From assembly GCA_965242515.1 (NCBI GenBank), contig OZ251448.1, positions 518,512 through 582,511 of the forward strand: 64,000 bases of DNA, given 5' to 3'. Position 1 is the stretch's first letter. Every line of letters starts with the position of its first letter. The translations under genes were made by a program, and so were the position numbers. Shown one piece after another: positions 22,283 to 27,670 of the stretch. The notes under the pieces were generated by a model that saw only the letters and a program-made list of their open reading frames with translations, was not told the origin of the DNA and made no database searches. The DNA is from Bdellovibrionales bacterium. Lineage in GTDB: Bacteria; Bdellovibrionota; Bdellovibrionia; Bdellovibrionales; UBA1609.

Positions 22283-22960
22283 TTAAGGTGCAGGGTTAGA
22301 GTGGTTATTAAAAGGCGATTCTTCCTCCGGTATTTCAATCTGTTTTAGTGGTTGTGTTGTGTCTCGGAAGTCTGCACCTTCTATCTTAGCATTTTTTAAA
22401 TCATCTTTTGTTAGAAACTTCACAGATCGTAAATCAGCACCTCGGAAGTCTGTATTTTTTATAATAGCATCTTTGAAATTTGCGTGTGAAAAAAATGAGC
22501 TACCTCGGAAGTCTGTATCTTCTAGATTTGCTCTTACCAATATTGCTCGATCTAAGTCAGCACCACGAAAATCAGCACCTTTTAGATTCGCTCCAGTAAA
22601 ATCTGACGCTGTTAAATCAGCACCACGAAAATCAGCACCTTGTAAATTCGCACCCCTAAAATTTGACCATCTTATATGCACACCTGGCATATATGCATTC
22701 TCAAAATCTGCACCTTGTAAATTACATTTATTTACTTTTAATTCATCTCTAGATTTTATATAGATATCATCTCTAAAATTATCTATATTACAATTAGATT
22801 CTATTTTATCTCTATCTACAGGTGGTGCATAACGAGATAAGTCTTCAGCTACTTGTCGGGTGGGGTTTTGTGGTGGAGGTTTATGAGCTTGCCTCTTTGG
22901 CTTAGTGGTAACACAAGCCCCAAGGCTTAAAAATAGCAATAAAGTAATAATATGTTTCAT
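22283..22960 (-). CDS. Pentapeptide-repeat lipoprotein
   Basis: Lipobox LSLGAC. Long run of A(D/N)LxG-type pentapeptides (ANLQGADFRGADLTASDFTGANLKGADFRGADL...). AGGAGG RBS at 22969-22974. Confidence 0.85.
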   Translation of the reverse strand: MKHIITLLLFLSLGACVTTKPKRQAHKPPPQNPTRQVAEDLSRYAPPVDRDKIESNCNIDNFRDDIYIKSRDELKVNKCNLQGADFENAYMPGVHIRWSNFRGANLQGADFRGADLTASDFTGANLKGADFRGADLDRAILVRANLEDTDFRGSSFFSHANFKDAIIKNTDFRGADLRSVKFLTKDDLKNAKIEGADFRDTTQPLKQIEIPEEESPFNNHSNPAP

Positions 22961-22983
22961 AATACAATCCTCCTTTTAATTTA

Positions 22984-23047
22984 TTGATTGATTGATTGAT
23001 TGATTGATTTATTTATTTATTTATTTATTTGTTTGTTTGTTTGTTTA
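22984..23047. repeat. Compound tetranucleotide microsatellite (TTGA)6(TTTA)5(TTTG)4
   Basis: Read directly. It fills almost the whole 104-nt gap between the VWA-like gene stop (23065) and the pentapeptide gene start (22960), ending about 10 nt from the RBS. Confidence 0.95.
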
Positions 23048-23064
23048 ATCATTGAACTAAAAAA

Positions 23065-24669
23065 CTAATACCGAGTGTCAGAAAGGATTTTTTGTGCGAG
23101 TGGCACAAAACTTCTATCACAAATACTAAAGTTCATACCGCCTGTGATTTCTGCCAACCTTGCTAACTCAACTCCATAACGAGCATCTCGTTTAGCTTCT
23201 GCGACAAGGTGACTGTTGTCATATTGTGTTCTGCAAGCCACATCCCCCGGAATCATAATAATACCATAGCCTGTAAAACGCTCTCTCTGATGAGGATATA
23301 ACTCACCCACAAATTGCAACACATCATCGGCCGTTGTACGAACATGTGGTAAATCAGGGAAATCCCCACCTTCATCACTATTAGAAATTATAACTATTAC
23401 CTTATGAGCATGGTAGCGAAATTTATATTTGTGCTTTCTTAACGCCACTATTAAAGTTTTAAGTGGTTGCTCATGCCAGCTTCCTACCCCAGGTGATAAA
23501 TAAGATACCGGAACATCAATCATATTAGAACTATCAAAGTAACCGTCATTATCTTCCCAGTCATACCCACCGTCCCAATCGTATTCATCGTACTGATTGT
23601 ACTGATCGCTGTGATCACGGTCTTTTTGATCGTGGTCTTTATGTTGATTGCCGTATTTGTGCATCTTATAGGTACCTTTCACATGATATGACAATGTATC
23701 TATAAAAATAGATTCATAATCTAGCATACTTTTAGATAAAACATACTGATCTAATAACCTTCCATTATTTTCTAAAGGAATAAGCTCACCATTGTCATAA
23801 TGAGGAGCACTTTTAAAAATTGACACTGCATTACCCCAAATATTACGCAAACCCCAATTAGAATTGGTAAAAAATATCCTCCAATCTAAAGGTGATAAAG
23901 CTTGTATAAACCCTCTAAAATAAGCAGGAGCATTTAATAAAAACTGATGCATAGATTCCGATGTGTCTACCACAAACAAAATATCTACAGCACGACCATT
24001 ACTACCCCCACCATTAAACACACTAGGGTTAAATGTATTTATATCATCTCGCAAAACCCGCGAAGTGTCTACCTCTTGCAACCTACTAGTCATTCTACTT
24101 TGAGCCATGTTTTCTTGTTGTGGACGAGCATCACCTGACCCCATATTGGCATTATTCACACTACCCGTTGTATCTAATAAAGATGCATTGTAAGGTACGA
24201 TATTATTAGCACTGTCTAAAGGTGCACTGTCTGAAAGCCTTCTTCTATGAGAATGAGCCACACTATGCGATATGTTAGGTCTGTTAGCTAATGTAGAATA
24301 ATAACGACCTAAAGAACGAAATGATACAGGAGGGGTTGTAGCAAAATTACTTCTATATACCAAAGCTCCCCTTCTGCCTCTTCTACCCACTCTGCCTCTG
24401 CTATTTCTTGTATCTCTTCTGACTATTCTGCCTCTTCTGCCTATTCTACTGCGATTTCTGTGTGCCAAAACACCACGACGCCTGCCAGATCGTCGCCACC
24501 TAATAGTACCATCTTCTGATTCGTAAGCTTTTTTCCACCTTCTATCACCAATCAAAAGAGTTTTGCCTGCATCATCTGAAAGATCGTCCCCTTCTCCTGT
24601 AAAATAAACAGGATTGTTGCACGATGTTAAAAAAACTATTACAAACGCTAAAAGTAAATACCTCATCAT
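23065..24669 (-). CDS. VWA-like domain lipoprotein, paralogue 3 (Arg-rich linker, acidic/His-rich insert)
   Basis: Lipobox FLTSC. MIDAS-like VDILFVVDTSESM and IISNSDEG. C-terminal LARLAEITGGMNFSICDRSFVPLAQKI is shared with paralogue 1. Confidence 0.75.
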   Translation of the reverse strand: MMRYLLLAFVIVFLTSCNNPVYFTGEGDDLSDDAGKTLLIGDRRWKKAYESEDGTIRWRRSGRRRGVLAHRNRSRIGRRGRIVRRDTRNSRGRVGRRGRRGALVYRSNFATTPPVSFRSLGRYYSTLANRPNISHSVAHSHRRRLSDSAPLDSANNIVPYNASLLDTTGSVNNANMGSGDARPQQENMAQSRMTSRLQEVDTSRVLRDDINTFNPSVFNGGGSNGRAVDILFVVDTSESMHQFLLNAPAYFRGFIQALSPLDWRIFFTNSNWGLRNIWGNAVSIFKSAPHYDNGELIPLENNGRLLDQYVLSKSMLDYESIFIDTLSYHVKGTYKMHKYGNQHKDHDQKDRDHSDQYNQYDEYDWDGGYDWEDNDGYFDSSNMIDVPVSYLSPGVGSWHEQPLKTLIVALRKHKYKFRYHAHKVIVIISNSDEGGDFPDLPHVRTTADDVLQFVGELYPHQRERFTGYGIIMIPGDVACRTQYDNSHLVAEAKRDARYGVELARLAEITGGMNFSICDRSFVPLAQKILSDTRY

Positions 24670-24771
24670 AATATTTAATTATGGTATTTTTTCTGCAAAA
24701 AGAACAATAAGCAACGCGTTATTTTCTATTCTTTGCACTATTGCACACACCTAATAAACATTTTCTATTTG

Positions 24772-26011: not shown

Positions 26012-26029
26012 ATAACAACTATAAGTTGT

Positions 26030-27319
26030 TTATAAAGAATCGGCAACAATTTTTTGAGCCAGTGGCACATAACTTGTGCTACAAAGGCTGAAATTAACAC
26101 CACCTGTCAGCTCCGCTAAACGAGCTAGTTGCACCCCGTATTTATCTTCATCAGAAAAATCCCACCAATCACCGTAATCTGCTTGGCAACTATAATCGCC
26201 AGGTCTTACTAAAACACCGTAAGCTGTAAGAGTACCAGTAAGCTGATTTTTAAAAGTTTGCACTATATCTTCTGCTTTAACATACTTGCCACCATTTTTA
26301 CCTTCGTCACTATCAGAAATAACAATCACCACTTTACGAGCGTTAGGTCTAAAAGTCCCTTTATTTGCTTGAAGAGCGTATTGGAGATTTTTCAGTGGCT
26401 GTTCATGCCAGTTACTGCAACCTGGAGACAGAGTACATGTACTTATATATGAAGTGCTATGGTCACTAGCATACTCGTAAGCACTATGATGCCTTAAAGT
26501 ATCTAAAAAAATGGATGAGTGGTTTCTAACTTGTGGAGACAAAAACCTGGGTGCGTGTGTCAACAAGCGACCATTATCTTCTAAAGGGATAAGCCCACCT
26601 TTGTTATAAAAACCGCTAGAAAATAAATACCCCGGATCCGGACTCATAAAATAAATCCTCCAGTCTAAAGCTGATAAAGCTTGCACAAAGCCTCTAAAAG
26701 TACTTTGGGCATTAACTAAAAAATCATACATAGAGTGCGAGGCATCAACATTAAATAAAATATCTACTTGAGGTCCTCCGCCACTAGCAGAAGAATGGCT
26801 TCTCCCACCCACTAAATCACTACCTATAGTGGTCATACGCATGCGATATTTATTTTTGCCCCCTTTAACCCTGGGAGGATCTAAGCGTTTTTGTAATGGT
26901 TTTACAAAAGGTGGAGTGGGTGTGCGTCTGGCAACTGGAGGGTTCACAATATCTGCTGTTGGCACACGTCTTCTCATATTTTTATATTTTTTACCCGTAC
27001 CATCTAAACCTTTACCTACTTTATGTGTATCATCAATTTGTTGATTAAGATTATTCACCCAACGGGGTCTAGTTTGTGTTTGAGGTACTACAACCTCATC
27101 TCTAGCAGACTGACGGTGGCGTCTTCTTCTTTTTTTGCTTTTAGACGAAGGTACAATGATCTTGCCTTCTGTGCTAGCTTCTATCCTAGAGGCTAATTGT
27201 TCATTCCATTCAGGACCTTTGTCGTCTAAGTTGATATCAGACGAGCCACAACCTGTAAGCACAGTCATTGTTAAAAATACAACCGCTAACAATAAGTAGT
27301 TTTTTTGTAGTTTATACAT
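26030..27319 (-). CDS. VWA-like domain lipoprotein, paralogue 1 (basic linker)
   Basis: Lipobox LTGC. VDILFNVDASHSM (DxSxS), WHEQPLK, VISDSDEG, LARLAELTGGVNFSLCSTSYVPLAQKI. Start placed at Met11 because GGAGGA lies 7 nt upstream of that ATG; the tracked ORF extends to 27349. Confidence 0.75.
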   Translation of the reverse strand: MYKLQKNYLLLAVVFLTMTVLTGCGSSDINLDDKGPEWNEQLASRIEASTEGKIIVPSSKSKKRRRRHRQSARDEVVVPQTQTRPRWVNNLNQQIDDTHKVGKGLDGTGKKYKNMRRRVPTADIVNPPVARRTPTPPFVKPLQKRLDPPRVKGGKNKYRMRMTTIGSDLVGGRSHSSASGGGPQVDILFNVDASHSMYDFLVNAQSTFRGFVQALSALDWRIYFMSPDPGYLFSSGFYNKGGLIPLEDNGRLLTHAPRFLSPQVRNHSSIFLDTLRHHSAYEYASDHSTSYISTCTLSPGCSNWHEQPLKNLQYALQANKGTFRPNARKVVIVISDSDEGKNGGKYVKAEDIVQTFKNQLTGTLTAYGVLVRPGDYSCQADYGDWWDFSDEDKYGVQLARLAELTGGVNFSLCSTSYVPLAQKIVADSL

Positions 27320-27379
27320 CGATACATCCTCCATAATATGTTCCATCATAATGTTCCATCATAACCATGTTTTATTAAA

Positions 27380-27457
27380 TGTCCTATTAAACCTGTCCTA
27401 TTAACCATGTCCTATTAAATGTTCTATAATAATTAACTCTATAGTAATTAACTCTAT
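27380..27457. promoter_or_regulatory. Short tandem direct repeats upstream of the VWA-like gene cluster (candidate operator array)
   Basis: tgtcctattaa occurs at 27380, 27394 and 27408 (14-bp period). taattaactctat occurs at 27430 and 27445 (15-bp period). All lie within a 320-bp non-coding leader. Confidence 0.4.
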
Positions 27458-27670
27458 CCGTAACTCTTATATTTTATAAAATTCATTTTCTATACTTAAG
27501 AACTACTATAGTAAATTGTAGTTTGTAATAAAAAAGATATAAACAAAAGAAATAAATAAAAAACCAGACCCAAGTTTTAAACCCATTATCTAGTAAATGA
27601 TTTAAATAGCCCTAATTTAATACTTAAGTTTTAAGACTAATTACCTTAAGCAAAAAGACCAGCTCGCCTC

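Follow-up and report, generated by a model that had tools for sequence, protein, structure and literature searches.

What are the three related lipoproteins that a bacterium of the Bdellovibrionales encodes side by side on contig OZ251448.1, and how might they serve the cell? Their genes, here called G1, G2 and G3, lie on the minus strand of the stretch analysed (positions 518,512 to 582,511 of the contig, 64 kb in all, hereafter the window) and are followed by a fourth lipoprotein gene, G4. The original prediction had treated all four as one arrangement, in which three divergent von Willebrand A (VWA)-like paralogues are joined to a pentapeptide-repeat lipoprotein. Lipoproteins with a VWA domain and an adhesion site that depends on a metal ion (MIDAS) are integrin-like adhesins that give predatory and gliding bacteria a grip on prey or substratum; to our knowledge, only a few have been studied, namely Bd0875, CglB and CglD. 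We favour, with moderate confidence, the reading that G1-G3 are tethered, outer-membrane-anchored MIDAS adhesins of a Bdellovibrionota-wide, unannotated branch of this superfamily. The four genes, in window coordinates, are as follows.

26030-27349, minus strand: G1, longest open reading frame, 439 amino acids (aa), lipobox LTGC, Cys34 in the 439-aa frame; 26030-27319, 429 aa, from the ATG preceded by a Shine-Dalgarno sequence
25007-26011, minus strand: G2, 334 aa, lipobox LTGC, short tether of 37 aa
23065-24669, minus strand: G3, 534 aa, lipobox LTSC, Arg-rich tether at residues 18-227
22283-22960, minus strand: G4, 225 aa, lipobox LGAC, strong Shine-Dalgarno sequence, pentapeptide repeats

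Lipoprotein signals, tethers and a predicted VWA fold

The four successive minus-strand lipobox genes that had been predicted (LTGC, LTGC, LTSC, LGAC) are indeed present. Each protein begins with a hydrophobic signal peptide that closes in the lipobox [LVI][ASTVI][GAS]C, and a rule-based scan of 48 non-overlapping open reading frames in the window, each of at least 100 aa, was positive for exactly these four. The chance of four consecutive genes out of 48 is about 45/194,580, and the all-lipoprotein clustering is therefore not accidental. At lipobox position +2, G1, G2 and G3 have G, G and N, respectively; none has Asp. The longest-frame ATG of G1 (27349) falls within a 13-nt tandem repeat of the leader and lacks a Shine-Dalgarno sequence, whereas the ATG at 27319 has GGAGGA-N7 upstream and yields a normal 24-residue signal peptide. 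Judged by these signals, 27319 is probably the true start; residue numbers of G1 nonetheless follow the 439-aa frame throughout. G2 starts 18 nt past G1.

G1, G2 and G3 are mutual paralogues, as had been proposed. BLASTP relates G1 to G3 with an E value of 2e-59 (39% identity), G1 to G2 with 8e-20 and G3 to G2 with 6e-15. The motif blocks said to be shared by all three are there, with one exception: WHEQPLK is limited to G1 and G3, and G2 has QVNNPVQ in its place, the core NEQPL being changed to VNNPV. Two cysteine pairs, 305/311 and 388/423, are present in G1; the first pair is lost in G3. G3 also contains the acidic/His insert that had been described, a segment of 35 aa rich in acidic residues, His and Tyr (residues 343-377, 23539-23643), which separates the Thr loop from the NEQPL helix.

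Between the lipid anchor and the domain lies a tether. That of G1 (residues 35-194) is disordered and basic, with a linker pI of 11.1, and that of G3 has a pI of 11.6 and includes the RRSGRRRG... tract at residues 59-101 (24367-24495), so the very basic linkers reported for these two proteins are real. Tether lengths range from 37 to 211 aa in the window proteins and from 125 to 203 aa in G1-/G3-type orthologues of syntenic relatives; other family members have tethers of up to ~400 aa with internal repeats. The G1 tether (26768-27247; alignment A2) contains two copies of P-x-W-V-x-x-L-x-x-x-(I/V) that are conserved in gene-1 orthologues. Each copy forms a low-confidence helix in the predicted structure of G1, and these motifs may be partner-binding sites.

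The metal-site residues of the three paralogues are listed below. In agreement with the original prediction, G1 (DASHS) and G3 (DTSES) retain the DxSxS motif, which G2 has lost (NANPE).

G1, residues 195-439: VWA/MIDAS domain, with DxSxS at D202/S204/S206 (26732-26746), T284 and D348/E349
G2, 25802-25816, minus strand: degenerate first MIDAS loop, N66-A-N-P-E70 (motif table)
G3, 23953-23967, minus strand: DxSxS at D235/S237/S239, with the T in FIDTL and the D in SNSDE

AlphaFold2 models, compared with the PDB by Foldseek, are reported for G1 (built on 23 homologues) and G2. In the G1 model, residues 35-189 are disordered, with a predicted local distance difference test score (pLDDT) below 50, and residues 190-439 form a confident alpha/beta domain with pLDDT mostly above 90. 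This model matches integrin beta I-like domains, the VWA domain of ANTXR2/CMG2 and two pilus adhesins of streptococci, PitA and PilB. The E values run from 4e-6 to 3e-4, and for ANTXR2/CMG2 the target-normalised template modelling score (TM-score) is up to 0.61. The G2 model (pLDDT 84, predicted TM-score 0.78) matches integrin beta-I and alpha-I domains, the same classes as G1. Top matches for both models are all VWA domains, at a probability of ~1.0. In its model, G2 keeps the VWA fold despite the NANPE sequence of its first MIDAS loop.

Across the 23 aligned sequences, D202, S204, S206, T284 and D348/E349 (numbered as in G1) vary little or not at all, and the same holds for the cysteine pairs C305/C311 and C388/C423. 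The fold and the residue spacing predict that DxSxS, T and D/E converge on a single metal site. By their full MIDAS signature, G1 and G3 look metal-competent, and G2 looks MIDAS-dead.

Kinship with the MIDAS adhesins of predatory and gliding bacteria

To which described proteins, if any, are these lipoproteins related? An exhaustive search with a profile of the window family's domain alignment (A3) recovered 5278 cluster representatives with E values of 1e-3 or better; 1397 of them reach 1e-10 and 305 reach 1e-30. None of the representatives looked up has a functional name. Many of these proteins are lipoproteins that vary in their N-terminal region, and only the more distant ones have a beta segment of ~60 aa at the C-terminus; the window proteins terminate at the last VWA helix, and their N-terminal region is disordered. 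The distant members match NF052240 ('MIDAS family adhesin'), the equivalog model of Bd0875, over its full length of 378 positions, with E values up to 1e-31 and scores below the cut-off (61-114 bits versus 700). They also match the VWA region of the CglD model (NF033765) at ~1e-10, with at most ~39 bits versus a cut-off of 400.

The connection runs through a distant lipoprotein family whose named sources are metagenome-assembled genomes (MAGs) of Bdellovibrionota, represented by a second alignment (A5). Aligned by hhalign, A3 and A5 agree at a probability of 100% (E 2.7e-69, 279 columns). Each of the 20 A5 members has a match to NF052240, and 18 also match CglD, in the model region comprising CglD residues 641-876. 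By these profile comparisons, the G1-G3 family is homologous to the MIDAS domain of the Bd0875 family, with the A5 family as intermediate. Moreover, the spacing from D202 to E349 in G1, +147, equals that from D66 to E213 in Bd0875 (PMC11003981). By analogy of spacing, the segment between Thr loop and Cys loop that holds the G3 insert would be the counterpart of the 'cap' at the side of the Bd0875 MIDAS pocket.

Bd0875 of B. bacteriovorus is a lipobox MIDAS protein found at the predator-prey junction, and in its absence, or when D66 is replaced by Ala, prey are killed yet remain uninvaded (PMC11003981). CglB and the beta-integrin-like CglD, both VWA lipoproteins exposed on the cell surface, belong to the gliding machinery of Myxococcus xanthus and have a functional MIDAS (PMC9946355; bioRxiv 10.1101/2023.10.19.562135). 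The authors of the CglD study matched that protein to the integrin beta-3 structure 3FCS_B (bioRxiv 10.1101/2023.10.19.562135), which is also among our Foldseek matches.

With Bd0875/Bd1483 (Tyson et al. 2024, PMC11003981), the window proteins share phylum, lipobox, a DxSxS VWA domain, the loop-3 acidic residue at +147 and intradomain cysteines. Unlike them, they lack a direct NF052240 match, their family has two cysteine pairs rather than four predicted disulfides, and their genes stand in a conserved tandem arrangement in which one product is MIDAS-dead, whereas those Bd0875-like genes examined are single and scattered. Like CglD and CglB, they are predicted outer-membrane lipoproteins with a disulfide-stabilised VWA/MIDAS domain and the same integrin beta-I structural matches; unlike those two, they lack COMP/EGF-like modules, a beta-jellyroll and a direct match to the CglD model. 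The predicted fold and MIDAS residue pattern also recall integrin beta I-like and alpha I domains, ANTXR2 (CMG2) and PitA/PilB. The differences here are that identity is 10-17%, the window proteins carry a bacterial lipid anchor and extra insertions (the Cys-loop and the 'NEQPLK' helix), and they lack a partner subunit or pilin module. Membership in the Bd0875 equivalog fails on both score and architecture, and it is therefore better supported that G1-G3 work like Bd0875 than that they are Bd0875 proteins.

A MoxR-VWA system and a defence system were also considered and set aside. No MoxR-type AAA+ gene occurs among the neighbours, in the window or in relatives, as a MoxR-VWA or BatA-BatB system would have it, and a PADLOC search for anti-phage defence returned no match for G1-G4 at E<=0.01.

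The earlier statement that this is not a described system thus stands in part: the family lacks curated annotation, but it is a remote homologue of the published Bd0875/Bd1483 and CglD VWA domains. As to the suggestion of surface adhesion, the characterised homologues Bd0875 and CglD are adhesins, and an adhesion role is the best reading of the data.

How such adhesins might operate can be outlined. After processing by Lgt and Lsp, the Lol pathway would sort G1-G3 to the outer membrane, their +2 residues (G, G, N) not being Asp, and the flexible tether would hold the VWA head off the membrane. G1 and G3 could then bind an acidic ligand side chain via a divalent cation in the MIDAS, similar to the catch-and-release of Bd0875, CglB and CglD; candidate ligand sites are a surface, the envelope of prey or host, or a partner protein. 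G2 may act without binding metal, as a partner of G1 or as its modulator. The chaperone gene next to G1, described below, and a membrane protein encoded beside the VWA genes in relatives may aid export or oxidative folding.

The locus exposes a large branch of the superfamily, with thousands of cluster representatives and recognised by no curated model. Its architecture is different, with a long disordered tether where the small beta domain would be. The paralogues, one MIDAS-competent and one MIDAS-dead, look to have split their roles, and a partner with HTTM and DCC domains recurs. A family model would improve the annotation of Bdellovibrionota genomes.

Conserved surroundings and the origin of G3

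Is the arrangement of G1-G4 kept in other genomes? A word-indexed homology search yielded 20 relatives, all without a functional name and none above 43% identity, and a scan of one genome per species placed the family only in MAGs of Bdellovibrionales and Oligoflexia, with chromosomes of 1.3-2.0 Mb. Nine Bdellovibrionales loci (L001-L007, L015, L018) are syntenic with the window. In all nine, rodA-pbp2-mreD-mreC is followed, in divergent orientation, by a SurA_N/PpiD-like gene, one or more VWA lipoprotein genes and a gene for a membrane protein with HTTM and DCC domains; the SurA_N-like orthologue is directly upstream of the first VWA gene in each. The window has this upstream neighbour as well:

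27671-28708, minus strand: gene for a SurA_N/PpiD-like periplasmic chaperone, 345 aa, with an N-terminal membrane anchor

Its product matches Pfam SurA_N_3 (E 2.8e-31) and SurA_N_2 (E 6.8e-20), and a peptidyl-prolyl isomerase domain was not detected.

The number of VWA genes per locus is one in L018, two in L005 and L015, and three in L001-L004, L006 and L007. Genes 1 and 2 of the relatives overlap or are 2-47 nt apart, and G1-G2 is, on the evidence of gene order, an old and conserved pair. Gene 3 comes after a gap of 134-464 nt and abuts the HTTM-DCC gene. This last gene lies directly after the last VWA gene, on the same strand, in 9/9 relatives. It encodes a protein of ~600 aa that combines HTTM (PF05090, similar to vitamin-K-dependent gamma-carboxylase) with a DCC1-like thiol-disulfide oxidoreductase (PF04134), at these positions:

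L001, 11867-13711: HTTM+DCC gene
L002, 13836-15665: HTTM+DCC gene
L003, 9887-11749: HTTM+DCC gene
L004, 13379-15163: HTTM+DCC gene
L005, 11641-13560: HTTM+DCC gene
L006, 13572-15416: HTTM+DCC gene
L007, 13591-15390: HTTM+DCC gene
L015, 10082-12001: HTTM+DCC gene
L018, 9241-10356: only the DCC part detected

A tblastn search for the HTTM-DCC gene in the window was negative, and a literature search on HTTM/DCC returned nothing useful.

A neighbour-joining distance tree and motif signatures make window G2 orthologous to gene 2 of the relatives, and the tree places G3 as sister to its own G1, within the gene-1 clade. The signatures of G3, FIDTL and ISNSDEG, likewise differ from those of the relatives' gene 3, FLDSIS and ISNSKER, in the latter of which the MIDAS Asp has become Lys. 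The window triad is therefore G1, G2 and a duplicate of G1, rather than the ancestral triad; according to tree and signatures, G3 is a lineage-specific G1 duplicate and no orthologue of the relatives' gene 3. By the same sequence comparison, this duplicate has lost the first cysteine pair and gained the 35-aa charged insert beside the predicted MIDAS site. Erosion of the gene-2 MIDAS is widespread (DTSYA, DTTYH and DTSYY in relatives) and most extreme in the window.

A second locus was seen in L008-L011, L013 and L014 (~9700-12500 in each), where two VWA lipoprotein paralogues of more distant kinship are encoded in tandem. This pair keeps DxSxS intact, has a TDEDER loop, sits on short tethers and ends in a beta extension at the C-terminus. 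Four of these genomes also carry the syntenic triad locus. In three genomes, a response-regulator gene and a small gene of unknown function lie upstream of the pair, and the context (uvrA, groESL, response regulator; housekeeping genes) gave no functional hint.

Several observations weigh against an adhesin role for G1-G3 and must be set beside the homology. The VWA fold proposed at the outset is supported by the models and Foldseek, and the Pfam search gave sub-threshold matches only: G1 scores 18.3 bits with PF00092 (threshold 23.8) and G3 15.7 bits with VWA_CoxE (threshold 26.4), both in agreement with the predicted fold, and G2 has no Pfam VWA match at all. An NCBIfam scan of G1-G3 gave no match at E<=1, and a sequence-profile search of the PDB found integrin beta-1 only, at E ~0.5. 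Query-normalised Foldseek TM-scores are low, ~0.3, because of the tether and the insertions. No window protein reaches a curated threshold, and the link to Bd0875 is therefore transitive; unlike Bd0875/Bd1483, moreover, the window proteins have no small beta-rich domain and carry disordered tethers of 37-211 aa instead. Genes for gliding (Agl/Glt), pili or secretion are not among the annotated neighbours within the 64 kb. Outer-membrane lipoproteins often face the periplasm, and the conserved neighbours, cell-wall elongation and chaperone genes, fit a role inside the envelope equally well.

These last points lead to the main rival, which we regard as unlikely but well worth keeping in view: G1-G3 could be envelope lipoproteins that face the periplasm and cooperate with the SurA_N/PpiD-like chaperone, with MreCD-PBP2-RodA and, in relatives, with the HTTM-DCC protein. 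They might, for example, be anchored in the outer membrane and send basic disordered tethers through the peptidoglycan in the manner of LpoA/LpoB, with the VWA head as a protein-protein interaction module. The order rodA-pbp2-mreD-mreC, SurA_N-like, VWA, HTTM/DCC is indeed kept in nine relatives whose PBP2 is merely 62-65% identical to that of the window. However, transcription of the mre operon runs in the divergent direction, and within one lineage common descent by itself could account for the synteny. At 125-211 aa, the tethers have the length needed to span the periplasm, and the two conserved P-x-W-V-x-x-L motifs in that of G1 suggest a binding partner. The strongly basic window tethers (pI >11) also count in favour of this rival, but the charge is not conserved, net values being +19 and +20 in G1/G3 and -7 to +11 in relatives. 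Also against it, the characterised homologues Bd0875, CglD and CglB are surface adhesins, and more distant family members lie in unrelated gene contexts.

A more far-reaching possibility, and in our view a long shot, is that the SurA_N-like protein, the tethered VWA lipoproteins and the HTTM+DCC protein constitute a dedicated maturation-and-display pathway. The HTTM+DCC protein would oxidatively fold, or otherwise modify, the Cys- and acid-rich MIDAS heads, and G2 would regulate G1; the window lineage would have lost the HTTM+DCC enzyme in step with one cysteine pair in G3. If this were true, the locus would encode a bacterial adhesion unit of integrin-like kind together with the enzyme that modifies it. 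In any case, concrete hypotheses on the regulation and maturation of such adhesins follow from the G1/G2 pair and from the HTTM-DCC link.

Repeats, G4 and the rest of the window

Could the repeats at this locus mean that the lipoproteins are variably expressed, as was originally suggested? The non-coding elements in question are the following.

27320-27670, minus strand: long leader upstream of G1; four arrays of short tandem repeats, at 27330-27364, 27379-27419, 27423-27457 and 27532-27561 (Tandem Repeats Finder)
24770-24862, minus strand: dispersed structured repeat of ~90 nt between G2 and G3 (as a repeat copy, 24751-24856); the other copy occupies 18232-18333
22979-23047, minus strand: compound tetranucleotide microsatellite (AAAC)4(AAAT)6(CAAT)6, located after the stop codon of G3 and before the ribosome-binding site of G4

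The leader does contain short tandem repeats, in four arrays of 2-3 copies each, but it is not singled out by them. Short tandem repeats are frequent throughout the window and are a trait of the genome rather than a mark of the VWA locus. In relatives, the spacer between the SurA_N-like gene and the first VWA gene is mostly 59-217 nt. Promoter and terminator scans gave matches no commoner than in shuffled sequence.

The dispersed structured repeat between G2 and G3 was also correctly recognised. Its two copies agree at 88% over 106 nt, with an identical core of 39 nt, where none would be expected by chance, and each is located downstream of a gene on the minus strand. The repeat folds as a nested 7+6 bp hairpin, after which come a terminator-like hairpin and a U-run (folding z = -2.46). 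It has no Rfam match, is absent from related loci and has no further copy in JGI metagenome contigs; Rfam found nothing credible over 22000-28900 as a whole. The microsatellite that joins G3 to the pentapeptide gene is likewise present, is listed with 17 units and is the sole period-4 array in the window.

On a contingency model, the locus would encode phase- or antigen-variable surface proteins, with the leader repeats and the microsatellite switching lipoprotein expression. In its favour are the 17-unit tract directly upstream of the G4 ribosome-binding site and the four short tandem arrays in the G1 leader; gain and loss of paralogues (1-3 genes) and the hypervariable tethers would fit surface proteins under diversifying pressure. 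We nevertheless consider this improbable. The microsatellite precedes the non-conserved G4 and not the VWA genes, no repeat lies within a VWA coding frame, and the leader arrays, with 2-3 copies only, resemble repeats found throughout the window. A metagenome scan for alleles of the microsatellite returned no matches, and so no allele with another repeat number.

G4 itself is a pentapeptide-repeat lipoprotein, as had been predicted: besides its lipobox LGAC, it has tandem A(D/N)LXX repeats and matches PF00805 with an E value of 9.5e-36 (121.4 bits versus a cut-off of 20.2). All NCBIfam equivalog scores are far below cut-off. G4 shares the PF00805 repeats with Alr5209/HetL-like and Qnr/MfpA pentapeptide proteins but differs from them in its lipoprotein signal. 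This signal places G4 outside the cytoplasm, and a Qnr-like action on gyrase is therefore excluded.

The claim that the VWA triad and the pentapeptide gene form one arrangement did not survive the neighbourhood survey. A pentapeptide gene is found at the locus in 0/9 syntenic relatives, which have the gene with HTTM and DCC1-like domains there instead; on this comparison, G4 is a local neighbour and not a conserved member of the module. Although G1-G4 are adjacent, on the same strand and all lipoprotein genes in the window, it is thus very improbable that the four make up one dedicated system, given this absence, a synteny that breaks exactly after G3, and a terminator-like repeat between G2 and G3. 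The break lies beside an AT-rich island (20001-22078, GC 0.28), which holds an internally repetitive open reading frame of 465 aa on the plus strand (20681-22078) with no Pfam, NCBIfam or PADLOC match. G4, the microsatellite and this island may be marks of a rearranged downstream flank that lies outside the module.

Elsewhere in the window, 23S and 5S rRNA genes lie at 52144-55445 on the minus strand. No 16S rRNA or tRNA genes were found in the 64 kb, and the lack of a 16S gene within 8.5 kb upstream of the 23S gene suggests that the rRNA operon is unlinked. Unlinked rRNA operons occur in some bacteria with small genomes. Further tandem arrays are a perfect 7-mer in 10.6 copies (49297-49370), a 26-mer in four copies (42988-43089) and a 33/66-mer array (55849-56082), the latter just upstream of the 23S rRNA gene. 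Finally, polA (5086-7968) contains in-frame tandem repeats at 6805-7056, between the 5'-3' exonuclease and polymerase domains: an 18-nt unit, present 7.8 times, encodes GNDN(G/R)(S/G) hexapeptides, and a second 18-nt array encodes (P/S)(A/S)SAVI.

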